Virus record (IMG/VR): IMGVR_UViG_2740892235_000016
Coordinates: 1-32,315 of that record
Reading direction: 5' to 3' (one strand)
Origin: a virus
Lineage: Duplodnaviria > Heunggongvirae > Uroviricota > Caudoviricetes
Length of the DNA stretch: 32,315 bases
Made by a program: the position numbers and the translations under genes. This document shows, in pieces, positions 1 through 32,315 of the stretch; the first letter of the stretch is position 1; each line of letters starts with the position of its first letter. The notes under the pieces were generated by a model. That model searched no databases and was not told the DNA's origin. It was given only the letters and a program-made list of their open reading frames with translations.

Positions 1-255
1 AAGTACACGCGCTGGGTTAAGACGCAGCCGTGTGCATGTTGTGGTAAGCCAGCCGACGATCCGCATCACCTGATTGGTCATGGTCAGGGTGGAATGGGTA
101 CAAAAGCGCATGACCTTTTTGTGTTGCCTTTGTGCAGAAAACACCATGACGAACTGCATGCGGATACCGTGGCATTTGAAGAGAAGTATGGTTCCCAACT
201 GGAGCTGATATTTCGTTTTATCGATCGCGCACTGGCGATTGGTGTGCTGTCCTGA
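1..255 (+). CDS. DUF968-like prophage protein, C-terminal fragment (5' end lies outside window); Cys/His-rich CxxC...HH motif
   Basis: Frame-1 ORF open from base 1 to TGA at 253-255; translation identical to the C-terminus of the 2082..2919 ORF; position immediately upstream of a Q gene as in lambdoid nin/Q regions. Confidence 0.6.
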   Translation, partial: KYTRWVKTQPCACCGKPADDPHHLIGHGQGGMGTKAHDLFVLPLCRKHHDELHADTVAFEEKYGSQLELIFRFIDRALAIGVLS

Positions 256-272
256 TTTTGTGGAGAAAGTTG

Positions 273-653
273 ATGCGTGATATTCAGATGGTTCTTGAAC
301 GCTGGGGGGCATGGGCGGCAAGTGGTAACACCGGGGTGGACTATTCTCCGATCGCTGCCGGATTCAAAGGACTTTTACCATCTGCCACTAAACCACGTCC
401 GGCCTGCTGCGATGATGACGGACTTATCATTGAAAACTGTCTTGCTCGTCTGAAGCAGAAAAAACCTGAGGAGTATTCGCTTCTCATTGCTCATTATTTG
501 TTGCGAATATCAAAAAGACAGATAGCCAGGACGAGAAAGAAAAGCGAAAAAGCAATACGAATTGAGATGCAGATAGCCGAAGGGTTTATTGACGGATGTT
601 TGTCTGTGCTGGGGGTAAGACTGGAGATGGACGACTGGCTGCTAAAAAAGTAA
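273..653 (+). CDS. Q-family late-gene antiterminator, divergent paralog of the quuD-like gene at 2937..3320
   Basis: ORF track 258..653, ATG at 273 ([16 protein letters not shown]...); same N-terminal motif and length as copy 2 but divergent after residue ~20; sits directly after a DUF968 gene. Confidence 0.65.
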   Translation: MRDIQMVLERWGAWAASGNTGVDYSPIAAGFKGLLPSATKPRPACCDDDGLIIENCLARLKQKKPEEYSLLIAHYLLRISKRQIARTRKKSEKAIRIEMQIAEGFIDGCLSVLGVRLEMDDWLLKK

Positions 654-721
654 AAAATGATTAGCGCGGTCCGCAAAAAGTATGTCAGTATGTTAAGAGT
701 GGTTACTTCGCCACACAGCTT

Positions 722-746
722 AAACCCGCCGCGAGCGGGTTTTTTT
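722..746 (+). terminator. Rho-independent terminator (tR'-like) downstream of Q copy 1
   Basis: GC stem cccgc/gcggg with a 5-nt loop followed by a 7-T run (aaacccgccgcgagcgggttttttt). Confidence 0.6.
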
Positions 747-819
747 ATGGCTGAAATCGGTCCTGTACAGTAAACGCGCTGGTGGCGGTGAATATATGTC
801 TTTCAGCTTGCTGGCTTTT

Positions 820-848
820 TTGACAAGAGTTATTGGTGTGTCACGTTA
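820..848 (+). promoter_or_regulatory. Candidate sigma70 promoter for the small HTH ORF (perfect -35 TTGACA, weak -10)
   Basis: TTGACA at 820-825, 17-bp spacer, ACGTTA-like -10; the second copy (1990-1995) reads TCGACA. Confidence 0.3.
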
Positions 849-868
849 ACCGGAAAAGGGAAAAAGAC

Positions 869-1066
869 ATGCTGAAACAGCAGGATATGACAGAAACCGC
901 CAGAGCAGTGTTTAATGAATTAAGCGTCACCGAACCGGCGACAGTCGGGGAGATTGCGCAGAATACTTACCTTTCACGCGAACGCTGCCAGTTAATACTG
1001 ACCCAGCTTGTTATGGCGGGTCTGGCAGACTATCAGTTCGGTTGTTACAGACGCCTTCAGTCCTGA
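869..1066 (+). CDS. Small (65 aa) putative winged-helix/HTH DNA-binding protein of unknown function
   Basis: ORF with ATG at 869 preceded by AG-rich RBS (aaaagggaaaaagac); HTH-like segment TVGEIAQNTYLSRERCQLILTQLVMAGL; own terminator overlapping its stop codon; 5' end duplicated at 2039-2071. Confidence 0.5.
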   Translation: MLKQQDMTETARAVFNELSVTEPATVGEIAQNTYLSRERCQLILTQLVMAGLADYQFGCYRRLQS

Positions 1067-1076
1067 AGGCTTTTTT
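1053..1076 (+). terminator. Rho-independent terminator of the small HTH ORF
   Basis: gccttcag-tcc-ctgaaggc hairpin followed by TTTTTT; stop codon TGA lies inside the hairpin. Confidence 0.65.
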
Positions 1077-1189
1077 ATTTGTGGTAAATGGGCGGCTGGT
1101 GGGTGTTAGGGGCACTCACCAGCCATCTGCTCATGCGTTGGGGTCACAAGCAAACCTCAGGCCCATCTGCTTTGCGCAAAAGCGGTATG

Positions 1190-1199
1190 NNNNNNNNNN
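1190..1199. other. Run of 10 N (assembly/scaffold gap or masked sequence)
   Basis: Directly visible in the sequence. Confidence 0.95.
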
Positions 1200-1265
1200 T
1201 CAGCTTGTTCCTGGTGGTCGGTTGGGTGTGAAGATTTACAAAATTGAGAGTGAGTGAGCGTAAAT

Positions 1266-1796
1266 ATGATATATCCGGAAATTACAGGCAAAAGCGGCGA
1301 ACATTTACGCCTGAACACGCTGGAAGCAGTCTGGATCCAGGGGAAATTACGGATGTGGGGGCGGTGGTCGTATATAGGCGGGGGTAAATCCGGAAATATG
1401 TTTAACCGGTTACTGGTTTCGAAGAAGCTGACGAAAACAGCAGTTAATGAAGTTTTACGCAGAATGAAGAAATCCGGGCTGGATAAACCGGAACTTGAGG
1501 CATTTTTTCGGGATATGACCAGAGGGAAGCAGAAGAGCTGGTTGTCACATTGTACAGACACAGAGGCGTTGATTATTGATCGCGTTATCAGTGAGGTGCT
1601 TGGGGAATATCCCGGGCTAATCAATATTCTCCGGCAAAGGTACGAAGGACGGGGTATGAGTAAGAGAAAAATGGCAGAATGTTTAAATCGTACTCACCCG
1701 GAATGGTGCTTCAGCACATGTGAGAAACGTATTGCAGGTTGGTTAGCCGTGGCTGAACACATGCTTTATGTACCTATGCATGATTCATTTCGATAA
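1266..1796 (+). CDS. Q-family antiterminator-like protein (third, highly divergent Q paralog, 176 aa)
   Basis: ORF track 1254..1796, ATG at 1266; motif LRMWGRWSY parallels LERWGAWAA of the other two Q ORFs; C-terminal basic/HTH-like segment (GMSKRKMAECL...IAGWLAVAE) parallels the other Q proteins; followed by terminator-like hairpins. Confidence 0.5.
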   Translation: MIYPEITGKSGEHLRLNTLEAVWIQGKLRMWGRWSYIGGGKSGNMFNRLLVSKKLTKTAVNEVLRRMKKSGLDKPELEAFFRDMTRGKQKSWLSHCTDTEALIIDRVISEVLGEYPGLINILRQRYEGRGMSKRKMAECLNRTHPEWCFSTCEKRIAGWLAVAEHMLYVPMHDSFR

Positions 1797-1894
1797 AAAA
1801 AGCTTGCTTTTTTACGCAGAAACAGCTTGAATTCCTGTAAGCTTCGCAAAGCTGTATCGCGAGGCGAAACGCAAGTTTTTTTCGCACAAGGAAG

Positions 1895-1915
1895 CCACCG
1901 GAAGGTGGTTTTTTT
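1895..1915 (+). terminator. Rho-independent terminator downstream of the 176-aa Q-like gene
   Basis: ccacc-ggaa-ggtgg hairpin followed by a 7-T run; approximate coordinates. Confidence 0.5.
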
Positions 1916-1940
1916 GTGTCCGTAATATATAGCAGCGCAA

Positions 1941-2071
1941 TAAATTCGCTGGTGGTTATTAATACAGTTCTTTCAGCTTGCTGGCTTTTTCGACAAGAGT
2001 TATTGGTGTGTCACGTTAACCGGAAAAGGGAAAAAGACATGCTGAAACAGCAGGATATGACAGAAACCGCC
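1941..2071 (+). repeat. Direct repeat of 771-901 (last ~105 bp near-identical), including promoter-like region and 5' end of the small HTH ORF; truncated by the N gap
   Basis: Alignment by eye of 799-901 with 1969-2071 shows a single mismatch (T/C in the -35 hexamer); upstream 30 bp diverged. Confidence 0.85.
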
Positions 2072-2081
2072 NNNNNNNNNN
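2072..2081. other. Run of 10 N (assembly/scaffold gap or masked sequence)
   Basis: Directly visible in the sequence. Confidence 0.95.
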
Positions 2082-2919
2082 CGCGGCATCACAACCGCTG
2101 GCGGATGATCCTGCCGTTCGGGCCGTGTTCCGTAATGAGGCAGTGATTCGTCGTGCTGGTGGGGTGGAATGTCTTGAAAGCTGGTTACTTCGTGAAAAAG
2201 GTTGCCAGTGGCCTCATTCCGACTGGCACAGCGAGAACATGACCACAATGCGACACGCGCCGGGCGCAATCCGTCTGTGCTGGCACTGCGATAATCAGTT
2301 ACGTGATCAGTTCACGGAGCGGCTGGAATCAATGGCAACGGATAACTGTGCCCATTGGGTGTTGTCTGTAGTCCGTCGGGATCTCGATTTTAATGATAAC
2401 CATGCCGTGACAATGCCGGAACTGTGCTGGTGGCTGGTTCGTAATGACCTGGCGGATGCCTTACCGGAAAGCGCAGCCCGTAAGGCACTGAGATTACCGA
2501 AGTCTGTTTTGCCGTCTGTCACCCGGGAAAGTGACCTTGTGCCTTCGGTTCCTGCCACCAGCATTATCCAGGATAAAGCGAAAAAGGTGCTGGCGCTGAA
2601 AGTGGATCCGGAGTCGCCGGAGTCTTTTATGTTACGCCCCAAACGTCGTCGCTGGGTTAATGAACAGTACACGCGCTGGGTTAAGACGCAGCCGTGTGCA
2701 TGTTGTGGAAAGCCAGCTGATGATCCGCATCATCTGATAGGCCATGGTCAGGGTGGAATGGGTACAAAAGCGCATGACCTTTTTGTGCTGCCTTTGTGCA
2801 GAAAACACCACGACGAACTGCATGCGGATACCGTGGCATTTGAAGAGAAGTATGGCTCCCAGCTGGAGCTGATATTTCGTTTTATCGATCGCGCACTGGC
2901 GATTGGTGTGCTGGCCTGA
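2082..2919 (+). CDS. DUF968-like prophage protein (Cys/His-rich C-terminus), 5' end truncated by the N gap
   Basis: Reading frame open from the gap through ORF 2125..2919; C-terminal 84 aa identical to the 1..255 fragment; CxxC and HH/H motifs. Confidence 0.65.
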
Positions 2920-2936
2920 TTTTGTGGAGAAAGTTA

Positions 2937-3320
2937 ATGCGTGATATTCAGATGGTTCTTGAACGTTGGGGAGCGTGGGCGGCTAATAATCATGAAGATG
3001 TGACCTGGTCGTCCATTGCCGCCGGTTTTAAGGGATTAATTCCTTCAAAAGTAAAATCTCGCCCGCAATGTTGTGACGATGACGCGATGATCATTTGCGG
3101 GTGCATGGCCCGTCTGAAAAAGAACAACAGCGATTTGCACGATTTATTAGTAGATTATTATGTAGTCGGTATGACATTCATGTCACTGGCAGGTAAGCAT
3201 TGCTGCTCTGATGGTTATATCGGGAAAAGGTTACAGAAGGCTGAGGGCATAATTGAAGGGATGTTAATGGCATTAGATATCCGGTTAGAGATGGATATCG
3301 TTGTTAATAACTCTAATTAA
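2937..3320 (+). CDS. quuD: Late-gene antiterminator Q, DLP12 QuuD-like (phage 82-type)
   Basis: ORF track 2922..3320 with ATG at 2937; 127-aa product [24 protein letters not shown]... matches my recollection of QuuD; located upstream of the nmpC-like porin and 21-type lysis genes as in DLP12. Confidence 0.7.
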
Positions 3321-3345
3321 TATGCCAATTGTTTACTGAAAGTTA

Positions 3346-3372
3346 TTAAAAATGGGGCGTTGCAACGCCCCC
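3346..3372 (-). terminator. Rho-independent terminator, likely for the minus-strand porin gene
   Basis: GC hairpin (ggggcgt-tgca-acgcccc) followed on the minus strand by ATTTTT; two further GC hairpins at ~3438-3459 and ~3468-3484. Confidence 0.5.
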
Positions 3373-3509
3373 AAAAATAAAGGGTAATATATAACAGAAG
3401 GTTTATATAGTTAGAAGCAAGGTTGTGCTCCTAAAGGAAGTGGCTTGAGGGAGCCACTTATATGTTGGGGAGGCAACGCCTCCCGCAACATATCTTTTTC
3501 GTAATCAGA

Positions 3510-4607
3510 TTAGAACTGGTAAACCAGACCTACAGCAACGATGTCATCAGTGCTTACACCGAGTGCTTTAGTGAAGTCATTTTTGTCAAGCAGGTTGATT
3601 TTGTAATCAACGAAAGTAGACATATTTTTGTTGAAGTAATAGGTTGCACCTACATCAACATATTTGACTAAGTCCTGATCGCCCCATACTCCAAGATCCT
3701 TACCTTTAGATTGCAGGTAAGCAACGGACGGACGCAGACCGAAATCGAACTGATATTGTGCAACAGCTTCGAAGTTTTGAGCTTTATTAGCAACGAAGTG
3801 ATCAGCAAATACAGTCATATTCTGGGTTTCAGAATAGGTAGTGGCCAGGTAAATGTTGTTAGCGTCATATTTCAGACCTGCGGCCCAAACTTCTGCATTT
3901 TTACCGGAAGCAAATACTTCAGGAAGAACTTTCCCTGCATTAACTTGAGTGTCGGTACGATCAGATTTCGCATAAGTTGCACCGATACCGAATCCTTCGT
4001 ATTCATAGGTAGCAGAGAAACCGAAGCCATCACCGTTACCTTCGGTGTAGTTATCGAAATCGCTACGATCGTTTTTGCCTTGGTACTGAGCAGCAAAGTT
4101 CAGACCATCAACCAGACCAAAGAAGTCGTTGTTACGATAGGTTGCAACACCAGTGGTGCGACCAGTCATGAACACATCTGTTTGGGTCCAGGTATCGCCA
4201 CCGAATTCTGGCAGAACGTCAGTCCACGCACCGATGTCGTATGCTACACCGTAGTTACGGCCGTAATCGATTGAGCCGTAGTCACCGAATTTCAGGCCTG
4301 CAAATGCAAGACGGGTTTTGTCTTTGGAGGAACCTTGAGATTCAGCGCGGTTGCCTTTGAATTCATATTCCCACTGACCGAAACCAGTCAGCTGATCGTT
4401 GATTTGGGTTTCGCCTTTGAAGCCCAGACGAACATAAGTAGTATCACCATCATCTGCATCGTTAGAGGAAAAGTAGTGCTTGGCATTAACTTTCCCGTAC
4501 AGATCCAGCTTGTTACTGTCTTTATTATAAATTTCAGCTGCCTGAGCAGACATCGCCATCAGTACTGATGCAGCTACAGCAGAAATTGCCACTGTTAATT
4601 TTTTCAT
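3510..4607 (-). CDS. nmpC: Outer membrane general porin, prophage-encoded NmpC/OmpD-like (OmpC family)
   Basis: 365-aa ORF with signal peptide [30 protein letters not shown]... and C-terminal ...VGLVYQF; matches remembered NmpC; strong RBS; AT-rich upstream region. Confidence 0.9.
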
Positions 4608-4936
4608 CGTGAGCCCTTTTTTTTGAACTATTATTAAAAAATGATGTCACTGCGCGATAAATATTCATCTAATCAATGTGATTATTTCAAGATGTAAGTT
4701 TTAGTTTCTCATTTAATTTGTGAAGTAGATCTCTATTTTTATCTGAACTTTTTCTATCGAAACCTATTTATGGCTCTTATTTGAACAAAAATAAACCTAT
4801 TAGCTAATTTATATTAATGGCTGTTATTTATGGTGGTTCTATAATTCGTCTGTTTAATTTAAACCAGCTAAAAATAACACTGGAAATTATTTATTGTTTA
4901 TTTGTTGAAGTTTTCTTATGTATTTGTGGTGATGTT

Positions 4937-4965
4937 TTGAACACTCGGTAGCATTCTCATAAATA
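4937..4965 (+). promoter_or_regulatory. Candidate late promoter (pR'-like) upstream of the lysis cassette
   Basis: TTGAAC -35, 16-17 bp spacer, ATAAAT/TAAATA -10; followed by a ~60-bp element (approx 4985-5058) homologous to the sequence just downstream of Q copy 1 (672-746). Confidence 0.4.
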
Positions 4966-5195
4966 TCATTCAGTGGTTTACGTACGTAAAAAATTGGTTA
5001 TGCTGTTAAGAGTGGTTACTTCGTCACACAGCTTAAACCCGCCGTCGAGCTGGTTTTTCCATTTTTTGAGTCTCGATATTAGCTGATAACTCAATACCTG
5101 AGTTATTCACCGACTCGGAGTCAGTTACGTTTCTGCTTTTTTGCGATACGTTGTATTCCCTCAATTTACACCCGCTTTGTCTGCGAGGTGGGGTT

Positions 5196-5411
5196 ATGAA
5201 ATTCATGGATAAGTTAACAACTGGAGTCGCCTATGGCACCTCAGCAGGTAGTGCCGGTTACTGGTTTTTACAGCTGCTCGATAAAGTCACTCCCTCACAG
5301 TGGGCAGCAATAGGTGTGCTGGGTAGCCTGGTATTTGGCCTGCTGACGTACCTGACAAACCTTTATTTCAAGATTAAAGAAGATAAGCGCAAGGCTGCGA
5401 GAGGTGAATAA
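5196..5411 (+). CDS. essD: Phage 21-type class II holin/pinholin with dual starts (M1 and M4)
   Basis: ORF track 5151..5411, ATG at 5196 after GAGGTGGGG RBS; product [28 protein letters not shown]... matches S21; two predicted TM segments; stop overlaps R start (TAATG). Confidence 0.85.
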
Positions 5412-5908
5412 TGCCTCCATCATTACGAAAAGCCGTTGCTGCTGCTATTGGTGGCGGAGCAATTGCTATAGCATCAGTGTTAATCACTGGCCCAAGTGGT
5501 AACGATGGTCTGGAAGGTGTCAGCTACATACCATACAAAGATATTGTTGGTGTATGGACTGTATGTCACGGACACACCGGAAAAGACATCATGCTCGGTA
5601 AAACGTATACCAAAGCAGAATGCAAAGCACTCTTGAATAAAGACCTTGCCACTGTCGCCAGACAAATTAACCCGTATATCAAAGTCGATATACCGGAAAC
5701 AACGCGCGGCGCTCTTTACTCATTCGTTTACAACGTGGGTGCTGGCAATTTTAGAACATCGACGCTTCTTCGCAAAATAAACCAGGGCGATATCAAAGGC
5801 GCATGTGATCAGCTGCGTCGCTGGACATACGCTGGCGGTAAGCAATGGAAAGGCCTGATGACTCGTCGTGAGATTGAGCGTGAAGTCTGTTTGTGGGGGC
5901 AACAGTGA
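5411..5908 (+). CDS. rrrD: SAR (signal-arrest-release) endolysin, lysozyme, phage 21 R-like
   Basis: 165-aa ORF with N-terminal hydrophobic Gly/Ala-rich SAR domain ([20 protein letters not shown]) and T4-lysozyme-like catalytic region; position after holin. Confidence 0.9.
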
Positions 5909-6366
5909 GCAGAGTAACCGCGATTATATCCGCTCTGATTATCTGCATCATCGTCAGCCTGTCATGGGCGGTCAATCATTACCGTGATAACGCAATCGCC
6001 TACAAAGTCCAGCGCGACAAAAATGCCAGAGAACTGAAGCTAGCGAACGCGGCAATTACTGACATGCAGATGCGTCAGCGTGATGTTGCTGCGCTCGATG
6101 CAAAATACACGAAGGAGTTAGCTGATGCGAAAGCTGAAAATGATGCTCTGCGTGATGATGTTGCCGCTGGTCGTCGTCGGTTGCACATCAAAGCAGTCTG
6201 TCAGTCAGTGCGTGAAGCCACCACGGCCTCCGGCGTGGATAATGCAGCCTCCCCCCGACTGGCAGACACCGCTGAACGGGATTATTTCACCCTCAGAGAG
6301 AGGCTGATCACTATGCAAAAACAACTGGAAGGAACCCAGAAGTATATTAATGAGCAGTGCAGATAG
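5905..6366 (+). CDS. rzpD: Rz, inner-membrane spanin subunit (i-spanin)
   Basis: ORF track 5893..6366; GTG at 5905 overlaps R stop (GTGA) and gives a 153-aa product with N-terminal TM helix and coiled-coil periplasmic domain. Confidence 0.8.
6125..6307 (+). CDS. rzoD: Rz1, outer-membrane lipoprotein spanin subunit (o-spanin), embedded in the +1 frame of Rz
   Basis: 60-aa ORF nested inside Rz; lipobox LVVVGC; proline-rich mature region. Confidence 0.8.
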
Positions 6367-28091: not shown

Positions 28092-31052
28092 ATGGCAGTA
28101 AAGATTTCAGGTGTACTGAAAGACGGCACAGGAAAACCGGTACAGAACTGCACAATCCAGCTGAAAGCAAAACGTAACAGCACCACGGTGGTGGTGAACA
28201 CGCTGGCCTCAGAAAATCCGGATGAAGCCGGGCGTTACAGCATGGACGTTGAGTACGGTCAGTACAGCGTTATTCTGTTGGTGGAAGGATTCCCGCCGTC
28301 ACATGCCGGGACCATCACCGTGTATGAAGATTCCCGACCCGGTACGCTGAATGATTTTCTCGGTGCCATGACGGAGGATGATGCCCGTCCGGAGGCTCTG
28401 CGCCGTTTTGAACTGATGGTGGAAGAGGTGACGCGTAACGCGTCCGCGGTGGCACAGAACACGGCAGCCGCGAAGAAGTCAGCCAGTGATGCCGGCACAT
28501 CTGCCCGTGAGGCGGCAACCCATGCGACTGATGCTGCAGGCTCAGCGCGTGCAGCCAGCACGTCAGCCGGACAGGCCGCGACTTCGGCTCAGGAGGCGTC
28601 TTCCAGCGCAGGAACGGCATCAACAAAGGCCACTGAAGCATCAAAAAGTGCTGCCGCTGCAGAGTCCTCAAAAAGCGCGGCGGCCACCAGTGCCGGTGCG
28701 GCGAAAACGTCAGAAACGAATGCTGCAGCGTCACAAAAATCAGCAGCCACTTCTGCATCCACTGCGACGACGAAAGCGTCAGAAGCCGCCACTTCAGCCA
28801 GAGATGCGGCGGCCTCCAAAGAGGCGGCAAAATCATCAGAAACGAACGCCTCCACAAGCGCCAGCAGTGCAGCCTCCTCGGCAACGGCGGCAGGAAATTC
28901 CGTGAAGGCGGCAAAAACGTCCGAGACGAATGCCAGGTCTTCTGAAACGGCAGCGGAACAGAGCGCCTCAGCTGCGGCAGACTCTGAGACAGCAGCTGCA
29001 TCATCGGCCCGTGAGGCGTCCATTAAGGCAGAGGAGGCAGCAGTCAGTGCCACCGCCGCCGGAAAATCGGCAGAAAGCGCCGCATCATCCGCTTCAACAG
29101 CCACAACGAAGGCTGGCGAAGCCACTGAACAGGCCAGCGCAGCAGCGAGGTCTGCTTCCGCAGCGAAGACATCCGAAACGAACGCGAAAGCGTCGGAAAC
29201 CAGCGCAGAATCCTCAAAAACGGCTGCCGCATCGTCCGCCAGTTCGGCGGCGTCATCGGCATCATCTGCGTCTGCTTCAAAAGATGAGGCGACCAGACAG
29301 GCGTCAGCAGCGAGGGGCAGCGCCACGACGGCATCCACGAAGGCGACAGAGGCTGCTGGCAGTGCGGCAGCGGCAGCACAGAGCAAAAGTACGGCGGAAT
29401 CCGCGGCAACGCGCGCCGAGACAGCAGCAAAACGGGCAGAGGATATTGCATCCGCCGTGGCGCTTGAGGATGCGAGCACGACGAAAAAGGGGATAGTACA
29501 GCTCAGCAGTGCGACCAACAGCACTTCCGAGTCACAGGCGGCAACGCCAAAAGCCGTTAAGGCCGCGTATGACCTGGCTAACGGGAAATACACCGCACAG
29601 GATGCAACGACAGCACAGAAAGGGATAGTTCAGCTCAGCAGTGCGACTAACAGCACTTCCGAGTCACAGGCGGCAACGCCAAAAGCCGTTAAGGCCGCGT
29701 ATGACCTGGCTAACGGGAAATACACCGCACAGGACGCTACGACAGCACAAAAAGGAATTGTCCAGCTCAGTAGTGCAACCAACAGCACATCTGAAACGCT
29801 TGCTGCGACACCGAAAGCAGTGAAAGCAGCTAATGACAATGCGAATGGTCGGGTACCTTCTGCCCGTAAGGTGAATGGTAAGGCGCTTTCAGCGGATATA
29901 ACACTGACGCCGAAAGATATTGGTACGCTTAACTCAACAACAATGTCATTCAGCGGTGGTGCTGGTTGGTTCAAATTAGCAACGGTAACCATGCCACAGG
30001 CGAGTTCTGTTGTTTCAATTACGTTGATTGGTGGCGCTGGATTTAACGTGGGGTCACCTCAACAGGCAGGTATATCTGAACTTGTTTTACGTGCAGGTAA
30101 TGGTAATCCGAAGGGGATTACTGGTGCTTTATGGCAGCGCACATCGACAGGGTTTACAAATTTTGCCTGGGTCAATACATCTGGTGATACTTACGATATT
30201 TACGTTGCAATCGGAAATTATGCGACTGGTGTAAATATTCAATGGGATTATACCAGTAATGCCAGCGTGACGATTCATACGTCACCAGCATATTCTGCTA
30301 ATAAGCCGGAAGGGTTAACGGACGGTACAGTTTATTCACTCTATACGCCATCAGAGCAGTTTTATCCGCCTGGCGCACCAATCCCGTGGCCATCAGATAC
30401 CGTTCCGTCTGGCTATGCCCTGATGCAGGGGCAGACTTTTGACAAATCTGCATACCCGAAACTTGCAGCCGCTTATCCGTCAGGCGTGATCCCTGATATG
30501 CGTGGCTGGACGATTAAGGGCAAACCTGCCAGTGGTCGGGCCGTATTGTCTCAGGAACAGGACGGCATTAAATCGCATACCCACAGCGCCAGCGCATCCA
30601 GTACGGATTTGGGGACGAAAACCACATCGTCGTTTGATTACGGCACTAAATCCACGAATAACACTGGTGCGCATACCCATAGTTTAAGTGGCAGCACGAA
30701 TGCAGCTGGTAATCACAGCCATAGAGATGGCCGTCGATTTAACCCCAGTGTTTTTAAAGATACTTATCAATATGGTTATACAAGCTCAGGTCAAAATACC
30801 TGGGGTGTACAAGGCTCAGTAGGTATGTCTACGGGGTGGTTAGCGAATACCAGTACAGATGGTAATCATAGCCATTCACTGTCCGGCACAGCAGCATCTG
30901 CAGGTGCACACGCGCATACTGTCGGTATTGGTGCTCATACGCACTCCGTTGCGATTGGTTCACATGGACACACCATCACCGTTAACGCTGCTGGTAACGC
31001 GGAAAACACCGTCAAAAACATCGCATTTAACTATATTGTGAGGCTTGCATAA
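28092..31052 (+). CDS. stf: Side tail fibre protein Stf (intact, ~986 aa) with Ala/Ser/Thr-rich shaft, three tandem 44-aa fibre repeats and His-rich C-terminal domain
   Basis: ORF track 28086..31052, ATG at 28092 ([26 protein letters not shown]...); C-terminus ...[22 protein letters not shown] with multiple HxH motifs; lambda-Stf-like N- and C-termini. Confidence 0.93.
29478..29873 (+). repeat. Three tandem in-frame 132-bp repeats inside stf (phage tail fibre repeat motif [15 protein letters not shown]...TPKAVKAA)
   Basis: KGIVQ codons recur at ~29490, ~29622 and ~29754; copies 1 and 2 nearly identical at nucleotide level, copy 3 diverged; boundaries approximate. Confidence 0.85.
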
Positions 31053-31627
31053 TGGCATTCAGAATGAGTGAACAACCACGGACCATAAAAATTTATAATC
31101 TGCTGGCCGGAACTAATGAATTTATTGGTGAAGGTGACGCATATATTCCGCCTCATACAGGTCTGCCAGCAAACAGTACCGATATTGCACCACCAGATAT
31201 TCCTGCTGGCTTTGTGGCTGTTTTCAACAGTGATAAGGCATCGTGGCATCTCGTTGAAGACCATCGGGGTAAAACGGTTTATGACGTAGCGTCAGGGGAC
31301 GCGTTATTTATTTCTGAACTCGGTCCGTTACCGGAAAATGTTACCTGGTTATCGCCGGAAGGGGAGTTTCAGAAGTGGAACGGCACAGCCTGGGTGAAAG
31401 ATGCAGAAGCAGAAAAACTGTTCCGGATCCGAGAGGCGGAAGAAACAAAAAACAGCCTGATGCAGGTAGCCAGTGAGCATATTGCGCCACTTCAGGATGC
31501 TGTAGATCTGGAAATCGCAACGGAGGAAGAAACCTCATTGCTGGAAGCCTGGAAAAAGTATCGGGTGTTGCTGAACCGTGTTGATACGTCAACTGCACAG
31601 GATATTGAATGGCCAGCACTGCCGTAG
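31052..31627 (+). CDS. tfa: Tail fibre assembly protein Tfa
   Basis: 191 aa, [54 protein letters not shown]...; start overlaps stf stop (TAATG). Confidence 0.95.
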
Positions 31628-31724: not shown

Positions 31725-32315
31725 TTATATGTCAGGTGTCTGAAGTTTTGCTTTGGCTCTTAAAATGGTTTGCCGCGAGGTTTTGAATTCCCGGGCAATG
31801 GCACTTATACTTACACCTGACTTAATTCGTTCGAATACCACCTGTTTCTGTTCTTCATTTAACACAGGTGGTCGACCAAAACGTTTCCCTGCGCCGCGGG
31901 CTCTTACTATCCCGGAATGAGTGCGTTCAAGTAAAAGGTCTCGTTCAAATTCAGCGACTGCTGAAATTACGTGCATCATCATTTTTCCTGTTGGACTGGT
32001 CAGGTCAATGCCCCCCAATGCTAAGCAATGCACTCTGATACCTGTTTCGGTCAGTTGTTCCACTGTTTTCCTGATATCCATTGCATTACAACCAAGGCGA
32101 TCCAGTTTTGTCACAATCAATTGATCACCACATTTCAGGCGAGCAAGCAACCGGTTAAAACCAGGACGCTCACTGGTTGCTGCTGAGCCGCTAATGTGTT
32201 CTTCGATTATTTGCTGAGGTTTGATTTTAAAACCTGCACTTTCGATTTCCCTGCGTTGATTTTCGATGGTCTGATCCAGCGTTGATATCCGACAGTAAGC
32301 AAAAATTCGAGACAT
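31725..32315 (-). CDS. Serine recombinase (resolvase/DNA-invertase family), complete 196-aa ORF whose start codon is the last three bases of the window
   Basis: N-terminal catalytic motif [12 protein letters not shown] (active-site Ser), central ...[11 protein letters not shown]..., GRPP linker and C-terminal HTH ([18 protein letters not shown]); convergent with tfa. Confidence 0.85.

Follow-up and report, generated by a model that had tools for sequence, protein, structure and literature searches.

The first 3,320 nucleotides of the stretch analysed here (the window, 32,315 nt) are in all probability a chimeric scaffold from a short-read draft assembly, in which parts of three lambdoid prophages of one Shiga-toxin E. 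coli would have been set side by side. Judged by comparison with other genomes, which is an indirect basis for calling a misjoin, the arrangement of three Q genes is non-biological, an ordinary draft-assembly artefact and no true tandem array. A first-pass annotation had offered both readings, a genuine array of late-regulatory modules or fragments of other prophages placed together during scaffolding, and had favoured the second. That choice is borne out by what is established here: the identities of the blocks and their separate homes, the lack of such an adjacency in the finished genomes searched, the genes cut short at the gaps, and a k-mer geometry that places the block ends at repeat boundaries.

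Draft record CCQJ01000091.1 (GCA_000753315.1) opens with the window, which takes up its first 32,315 nt. Identical N runs are present in both, at exactly 1190-1199 and 2072-2081, of 10 N each; they are the only N runs in the window and delimit block 1 (1-1189), block 2 (1200-2071) and block 3 (2082 onward). The gene calls of the record place three Q-type and two DUF968 genes side by side, and the two gaps, the three Q-family reading frames and the duplicated DUF968-Q junction all lie where the first-pass annotation had put them.

1-255, + strand: 3' fragment of a DUF968 gene, 84 codons (PF06147, E 7e-46, 156.8 bits); the source scaffold begins at position 1
273-653, + strand: Q1, Q antiterminator of 126 aa, qO111-like allele of an Stx2 prophage (full-length PF06530 Phage_antitermQ match, 177 bits)
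669-749, + strand: putative late-promoter/early-terminator (pR'-tR'-like) stretch 3' of Q1, with a hairpin and T-run at 722-749
869-1066, + strand: orf65, conserved hypothetical of Stx2 prophages (WP_000917735.1), annotated in finished genomes
1190-1199, no strand: gap 1, 10 N, probable join of unrelated assembly nodes; the native neighbour of 1189 differs
1200-1257, + strand: RusA gene remnant, its last 58 nt, at the start of block 2 (locus L002, RusA at 5699-6058, match from 6001)
1266-1796, + strand: DUF1133 Q-like protein of 176 aa, from a second Stx2 prophage (full-length PF06576 match, 1-176 of 176, 367 bits)
1938-2071, + strand: repeat copy of 768-901 that includes the first 33 nt of orf65 (2039-2071); 92% identical, last 80 nt identical
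2072-2081, no strand: gap 2, 10 N, probable join of unrelated assembly nodes; orf65 is cut on the left and DUF968 on the right
2082-2919, + strand: DUF968 gene of a DLP12-like prophage, without its first 152 nt (PF06147, 272.5 bits over 2083-2919)
2937-3320, + strand: Q3, QuuD, Q antiterminator of 127 aa (full-length PF06530 match, 181 bits; annotated quuD, WP_001204780.1)
3510-4607, - strand: porin gene, an NmpC-like moron flanked by quuD and the lysis cassette (PF00267, 521 bits; annotated porin)
4982-5044, + strand: copy of a 63-nt element, 84% identical to 669-731; may serve as late-promoter region of the lysis genes in block 3

Homes of the three blocks

The question whether each block had a better home elsewhere, raised in the first-pass annotation, was answered by comparison with finished E. 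coli genomes; three distinct prophages were matched, in each of which the block concerned is contiguous and 100% identical. Block 1 is identical to Stx2-prophage DNA in seven finished genomes, where the order is DUF968-Q-orf65 and then methyltransferase, three tRNAs and stx2AB; Q1 is found in this context as WP_001204806.1. The fragment at 1-255 is the end of what in finished genomes is a 990-nt DUF968 gene, and past 1189 the DNA methyltransferase begins 28 nt further on. Phage LC567841, which has been typed as qO111 (PMC8456039), is 97% identical to block 1. Terminator-like sites are found at 722-742, downstream of Q1, and at 1053-1070, following orf65, whose profile search gave sub-threshold winged-helix matches only. 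From Stx-phage biology (PMC7547250, PMC6266700), 669-749 may have a pR'-tR' role; as to a Q-utilisation site at pR' and read-through of tR', what was observed is the hairpin plus T-run after Q1 and the shared 63-nt element. The second copy of this element lies around 150 nt before the holin gene of block 3 (5196-5411), where it could also act as a late promoter. Rfam gave no known RNA family over 1-5500, and zero tRNAs were found in the window.

For block 2, seven complete-genome records contain a 100% match, in an Stx2 prophage other than that of block 1. Its native context is DUF968'-RusA-DUF1133-orf65-methyltransferase-stx2AB, as was seen in all 10 long contigs examined, and a cluster of sites at which RusA alleles vary begins at position 1200. 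The reading frame at 1266-1796 had been described as a third, more distant Q-like gene; the likeness to Q stands, in that its protein has a second match to PF06530 at 35.5 bits, above the gathering score of 26 that Q1 (177) and Q3 (181) also exceed, but its family is DUF1133. A DUF1133-type protein has been listed as 'Q antiterminator (HHPred)', pham 984 (PMC8136144), and comparison of the protein by sequence with solved structures gave no match. In their native contexts in finished genomes the Q genes stand after nin-region genes (RusA/DUF968) and just upstream of the late operon. The DUF1133 gene was on contigs of less than 5 kb in 687 of 1,192 collection blocks. Its designation as a 'qO111:H-' allele, after a 97.5% copy in O111:H- strain 11128, was dropped, the 11128 copy being in a stx-less prophage; the phage that has been typed qO111, LC567841, matches block 1 instead (PMC8456039). 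Two distinct Stx2 prophages are very probably present in the source strain; the qO111-like Q would belong to one and the DUF1133-type Q to the other.

Several finished genomes contain 2082-32315 as one unbroken stretch at 100% identity, a 30-kb match to a DLP12-like prophage with the order KilA-N-DUF968-quuD-porin-lysis-structural genes. The match of block 3 to locus L003, in which DUF968 lies at 4849-5838, runs from 5001, and block 3 is in all probability where the unbroken DLP12-like prophage of the scaffold really begins. An exact protein look-up of the 5'-truncated DUF968 frame 2125-2919 gave no match; the record's own gene call begins at 2082.

Where two of the blocks occur in the same finished genome, distances of 0.5-1.5 Mb separate them, and each prophage has a single Q. 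FWSEC0008 has block 1 at 4.525 Mb and block 2 at 3.057 Mb, strain 10 has block 1 at 3.506 Mb and block 3 at 4.484 Mb, and JNE120393 has block 2 at 1.355 Mb and block 3 at 1.892 Mb; at 99% identity or more, the finished genomes of the collection gave pairwise combinations only, and a full set of three was not found. A search of 5,426 complete E. coli genomes for the arrangement of the window, taken as one place covering at least 80% of 1-3320, gave no hit; the best coverage at one place was 67%, and this came from both DUF968 copies mapping to one gene. Likewise, 120 IMG/VR loci with the end of block 1 were compared, and none of them continues into Ns, block 2 or Q3. Exact-pattern scans of genome contigs, among which E. 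coli genomes are too few, gave no match either for the junction with its Ns or for the last 39 nt of block 1; a junction pattern with Ns also gave none in viral contigs, where an N in the pattern may not match an N in the target. Four other assemblies break at the same base (±1) as block 1; three of them then run natively into the methyltransferase gene, and the contig of the fourth is too short to reach it.

These positions also bear on the idea that the order is right and the gaps are huge, with each 10 N standing for tens of kb between tandemly integrated prophages. Ten Ns need not be a literal size and tandem prophages occur in STEC; however, in the finished genomes holding block pairs the prophages are at different loci, at the distances given above, and a late region, attR, attL and early region would be needed after block 1 and again before block 3, which is beyond short-insert scaffolding. 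This arrangement is therefore considered very unlikely.

Shared repeats and the geometry of the block ends

The direct repeat of 2-301 and 2666-2965, which covers the DUF968/Q start, is 96% identical, in agreement with the earlier description of two near-identical DUF968 3' ends with a different Q after each. The stretch shared by these two Qs is their first 16 residues rather than the first 20 or so, and they are 52% identical over 120 aa. The mosaic breakpoint that had been placed at the DUF968/Q boundary is real, but it lies inside the 5' end of Q, because nucleotide similarity reaches 47 nt into the gene, to 319/2983; it separates distinct prophages and not parts of one array, and the reading as a genuine tandem array is unsupported. 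Nor does the DUF968 repeat abut gap 2, as had been thought, since it begins 583 nt to the right of it. The repeat that truly abuts this gap is that of 768-901 and 1938-2071, absent from the earlier list, the second copy of which runs up to the Ns.

Of the four block ends that border a gap, three fall inside a gene, which leaves 58 nt of RusA, 33 nt of orf65 and a DUF968 that lacks 152 nt. With these three genes cut and N runs at both links, the uninterrupted DNA and intact flanking genes of a genuine array are not seen. A comparison of the two Stx2 prophages of FWSEC0008 shows differences at 821, 904, 988, 1109 and 1262 (window-equivalent positions). The end of block 2 corresponds to 821+80 (2071 is 80 nt past 1991, the last base specific to prophage B) and that of block 1 to 1109+80, in either case exactly 80 nt beyond the last base distinguishing the two Stx2 prophages. 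Block 1 starts at the first mismatch after a 135-nt exact repeat common to the block 3 DUF968, and the starts of blocks 2 and 3 coincide with paralogue-variant bases. As read from these positions, block ends of this geometry bear the mark of k=81 de Bruijn nodes, an argument that lets the FWSEC0008 prophages stand in for their counterparts in the source strain and covers two block ends and one block start only. Block 1 crosses three short shared stretches and block 2 halts at the first.

Alternatively, recombination between prophages could have stacked the Q1, DUF1133-Q and QuuD modules before one late operon, with the Ns as small unresolved stretches. The three modules have the same orientation and a plausible order, and the DUF968/Q-start and orf65 repeats are the kind of homology used in lambdoid recombination. 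Yet such an array is absent from the complete genomes and IMG/VR loci described above, it would need three truncated genes with deletion endpoints coinciding with N runs, and its block ends would fall exactly 80 nt past variants separating prophages 1.5 Mb apart, which is biologically meaningless and is expected of assembly nodes. It is regarded as extremely unlikely. The same slight chance is given to a recombinant prophage with two Stx-phage late-regulator stubs (Q1 and the DUF1133 Q-like gene) captured upstream of quuD; if true, one late operon would have three alternative antiterminators.

Proposed origin of the scaffold

The chimeric scaffold may be accounted for by three de Bruijn-graph nodes, one per prophage, chained with minimum-length 10-N gaps. 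Two modules are near-identical among the prophages, one a 2.6-kb LexA-RusA-KilA-N-DUF968-Q-start module and the other an orf65-methyltransferase-tRNA-stx2 module of at least 4.8 kb; since these are common to the prophages, the assembly graph would branch there. The unique Q-bearing stubs would be left as nodes of 0.9-1.2 kb and then set beside a node sharing a repeat, and 1110-1189 followed by AGCCTATCAGAG... (methyltransferase) would sit together on another contig. Breaks at this region would be due to lambdoid mosaicism; Stx prophages fail to assemble from short reads owing to their likeness to other lambdoid prophages (PMC4587872). In the real genome each Q would serve one prophage as its sole late-gene antiterminator, acting at the late promoter of that prophage, and two of the three Qs would gate stx2 expression. 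The type of assembler, the way in which the scaffolder linked the nodes and the promoter and terminator roles are parts of this explanation that we infer. The underlying biology is the already known lambdoid mosaicism, and there is no new biology.

An artefact of another kind could be imagined, in which contigs were ordered against a reference after assembly and joined with 10 Ns, a common submitter convention, the Stx-phage contigs being placed at the DUF968/rusA/quuD region of a DLP12-like prophage. Consistent with this, block 1 is 96% identical to the DLP12-like DUF968/Q start and block 2 begins in rusA, the neighbour of quuD in DLP12-type prophages, as in the K-12 gene order. However, each of the three blocks, even the one that opens the record, has the first node-specific base as its start and not a base 80 nt upstream. 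Such starts resemble graph nodes printed without the k-1 prefix which, to go by Velvet-type printing, stand-alone contigs would normally carry. Ordering against a reference is considered unlikely, if of appreciable probability, and direct chaining of graph nodes is preferred.

Comparison with known systems

Block 3 and the rest of the window share order and annotations with the late region of the DLP12 family (quuD-nmpC porin-essD-rrrD-rzpD-bor-ybcV). DLP12 of K-12 is a defective prophage; by contrast, the prophage of block 3 has a complete packaging/head/tail region, KilA-N and DUF968 upstream of quuD, and an uninterrupted porin. Like the Q21/Q82-type Q proteins (PF06530; 6P18, 6JNX), Q1 and Q3 match this family from end to end; the match of Q1 to the Q21 chains (6P18/6JNX) is distant (E 7.5e-8, residues 8-86 only) and its function is putative.

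In finished STEC genomes the Stx2 module has the order Q-pR'/tR'-orf65-methyltransferase-tRNAs-stx2AB, and blocks 1 and 2 are 100% identical to it up to orf65. Unlike that module, only the first 0.9-1.2 kb are present here, the methyltransferase, tRNAs and stx2 being outside the window. Among Stx2 modules the Q alleles differ and the downstream region is 97-99% conserved, which fits the q-allele diversity already described (PMC6266700, PMC8456039); how strongly the toxin is expressed has been tied to the Q allele (PMC6266700, PMC3320398).

There is also a likeness to the repeat-induced misassembly or mis-scaffolding of STEC drafts (PMC4587872), where breaks also occur at modules common to the resident lambdoid prophages and Q-stx is left on very short contigs. 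Here, unlike in those drafts, the fragments were chained into one record, and a false three-Q locus has been annotated as real. The main value of the analysis is one of caution, as surveys of prophage architecture, q-allele typing and searches for 'multi-Q' loci could trust such a public record at face value.

Three Q-type genes at the start of the window

The first-pass annotation reported three Q-family antiterminator genes and a duplicated DUF968-Q junction, interrupted by two N gaps, and preferred a scaffolding artefact to a tandem array of late-regulatory modules. All of these elements are present, as seen by Pfam, repeat and N-run checks. The only N runs in the whole window, 1190-1199 (gap 1) and 2072-2081 (gap 2), split positions 1-3320 into three blocks (1-1189, 1200-2071 and 2082 onward) with the following features:

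1-255 and 2083-2919: DUF968 fragments (PF06147 DUF968, 156.8 and 272.5 bits respectively)
273-653: the Q gene Q1 (PF06530 Phage_antitermQ, full length, 177 bits)
1266-1796: the DUF1133 gene (PF06576 DUF1133, full length, 367 bits; second match to PF06530, 35.5 bits against a cut-off of 26)
2937-3320: the Q gene quuD (PF06530 Phage_antitermQ, full length, 181 bits)

The Q1 and quuD proteins are 52% identical overall and do begin alike, but over 16 residues rather than the 20 or so first noted; the DUF1133 protein resembles Q1 only marginally. The repeat spanning DUF968 and the Q start is real (2-301 versus 2666-2965, 96% identity), and a further one had been missed: 768-901 matches 1938-2071 at 92% identity with the final 80 nt identical, and its right copy terminates exactly at gap 2.

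Native homes of the three blocks

When each block was searched for a better home, every one matched a different prophage at 100% identity. Block 1 has its match in seven finished E. coli genomes, in which the order is DUF968, Q, a 65-codon ORF (869-1066 in the window), a DNA methyltransferase gene, tRNA-Ile/Arg/Arg, stx2A and stx2B. Block 2 matches seven complete-genome records in the order of a different DUF968, RusA, DUF1133, the same 65-codon ORF as in the home of block 1, methyltransferase, tRNAs and stx2AB, and this gene context was found in 10/10 long contigs encoding exactly the window's DUF1133 protein. Block 3 and the remainder of the window match, across 6.9 kb and 24.9 kb, a DLP12-like prophage of several finished genomes (KilA-N, DUF968, quuD, porin, essD, rrrD, rzpD, bor, ybcV, terminase, head, tail). 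All three homes carry one Q-type gene per prophage. Where one finished genome contains two of the blocks, they are widely separated. The finished genome FWSEC0008 (O91:H21) holds both block 1 (4.525 Mb) and block 2 (3.057 Mb) at 100% identity; Strain 10 has block 1 at 3.506 Mb and block 3 at 4.484 Mb, and JNE120393 has block 2 at 1.355 Mb and block 3 at 1.892 Mb.

With 1-3320 as a single query, no place in 5,426 complete E. coli genomes reached a coverage of 80%; the best was 67%, where both DUF968 copies map to one DUF968-Q locus just 1.77 kb long. Similarly, none of 120 IMG/VR contigs that contain the 39 nt at the end of block 1 goes on into Ns, block 2 or quuD. It is highly improbable that the window holds a real tandem array of Q modules, and equally so that the pieces stand in their correct order with very large gaps between them.

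The prophage of block 1 and the DLP12-like prophage have 2,591 bp in common at 96% identity, comprising LexA-like, RusA, KilA-N, DUF968 and the first 47 nt of Q; the mosaic breakpoint thus exists, but it sits 47 nt inside Q and not at the DUF968/Q boundary. From window-equivalent 768 on, the block 1 prophage and the other Stx2 prophage, taken from different strains, are 97.5% identical across at least 4.8 kb, and the common stretch within FWSEC0008 is 6.1 kb at 99.3%. Prophage-private sequence is limited to around 450 bp at Q1 and 790 bp at the DUF1133 gene. It is because of this real mosaicism between separate prophages that assemblies break in this region. According to PMC4587872, short-read drafts do not allow Stx prophages to be assembled, owing to their likeness to other lambdoid prophages. 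Of the 1,192 collection blocks containing the DUF1133 gene, 687 have it on contigs below 5 kb.

Block ends and the public record

Three of the four block ends that flank the gaps cut a gene. Block 1 ends 28 nt short of the methyltransferase start, block 2 runs from the last 58 nt of RusA to 33 nt into the 65-codon ORF, and block 3 starts 152 nt inside DUF968. The two Stx2 prophages of FWSEC0008 differ at window-equivalent positions that include 798, 821, 904, 988, 1109 (a 1-nt indel in a G run) and 1262. The end of block 2 (2071) lies 80 nt past 1991, the equivalent of 821; this offset, derived from block 2, was then tested on block 1, whose end (1189) is 1109 + 80. With four differences in 822-1189, an end of block 1 exactly 80 nt past one of them would arise by chance in about 1% of cases. 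The start of block 1 is the first mismatch beyond an exact repeat of 135 nt (2530-2664) common to its own DUF968 and that of block 3, the start base of block 3 differs from the block 1-type DUF968, and the start base of block 2 is the leftmost in a cluster of sites (1200-1210) variable among RusA alleles.

The block ends look like k = 81 de Bruijn-graph nodes printed without their k-1 prefix, which would begin at the first node-specific base and finish 80 nt past the last one. Velvet would be expected to print scaffolded nodes in this way, with a gap minimum of 10 N. The pieces may have been ordered against a reference after assembly, but since the blocks lack k-1 prefixes we favour their having been chained by the assembler's own scaffolding. 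Taken together, the separate homes, the absence of the arrangement elsewhere, the cut genes and the geometry of the block ends bear out the artefact, and the three-Q cluster is almost certainly a chimeric scaffold and no feature of the genome.

Searching for exact matches to the protein encoded by the partial DUF968 gene (1-255) led to NCBI draft record CCQJ01000091.1 (assembly GCA_000753315.1). This "contig" is 45,298 nt long and agrees with the window at every base over its first 6,255 nt, including the Ns; the window corresponds to positions 1-32,315 of the record and therefore shares its first base. In the public gene calls the three Q-type genes and the two DUF968 fragments appear as neighbours, a warning case for users of the record. 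The search also yielded four other, unrelated assemblies (JHFU01000081.1, ACAITP010000165.1 and two MEGAHIT k141 metagenome contigs) with contigs that begin inside DUF968 at that position (±1 nt), in an allele of 96-98% identity. Three of them reach far enough to enter the methyltransferase gene and do so in the native order; the fourth (857 nt) stops after Q, and DUF1133 follows in none of the four. Position 1 is a recurrent contig-break point because of the 135-nt exact repeat common to prophage DUF968 genes.

The Q genes in their prophage settings

At the late promoter pR', Q proteins load onto RNA polymerase, which can then transcribe past the terminator tR'. Expression of the stx and lysis genes of Stx phages is gated in this way (PMC6266700), and the short terminated transcript is the sRNA StxS (PMC7547250). 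A hairpin and T-run lie downstream of Q1 (722-749), and 3' of the DUF1133 gene the sequence reads CCACC-GGAA-GGTGG followed by TTTTTTT (1895-1915). Phage LC567841, whose q gene has been typed as qO111 (PMC8456039), matches block 1 at 97% identity; the DUF1133 protein was entered as "Q antiterminator (HHPred)" in a Stx-phage survey (PMC8136144).

Several other features were observed:

869-1066 (+): the 65-codon ORF, conserved between Q and methyltransferase in Stx2 prophages, with sub-threshold winged-helix matches only (TrmB 18.9 bits, DprA_WH 16.6 bits)
669-731 and 4982-5044: a 63-nt element (84% identity), just after Q1 and about 150 nt upstream of the block 3 holin
3510-4607 (-): an uninterrupted porin gene (365 aa, PF00267, 521 bits) between quuD and the lysis cassette
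31052-31627 (+): tail-fibre assembly gene (PF02413), with an Rfam IS009 match in its 3' part (31395-31593, +, 226.7 bits)
31725-32315 (-): after the IS009 match, a Pin/Gin-like serine invertase gene (PF00239 and HTH_7), its start codon at the window's last base

The 63-nt element is possibly a common late-promoter/Q-utilisation region of two related Qs, Q1 and quuD; its block 3 copy is 1.66 kb from quuD because the opposite-strand porin gene lies in between. The nmpC gene of K-12 DLP12, homologous to this porin gene, is disrupted by IS5. The IS009 match, tail-fibre assembly gene and invertase, with the 988-aa tail fibre gene, look like an invertible host-range segment. In O111:H- strain 11128 (NC_013364.1, 1447279-1456068) a RusA-DUF1133-65-codon ORF-methyltransferase-tRNA module of 97.5% identity is followed by a SASA esterase gene and no stx genes, so stx-negative prophages can carry the DUF1133-type late module too.

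Q1 is a distant relative of Q21 (structures 6P18 and 6JNX), and for the DUF1133 protein no solved structural relative was detectable by sequence. In finished genomes, blocks 1 and 2 form the Q regions immediately upstream of stx2AB (the stx genes themselves being outside the window). It is therefore very likely that the source strain has two Stx2 prophages that differ in their Q allele, one qO111-like and one DUF1133-type, as is the case in FWSEC0008 (O91:H21).
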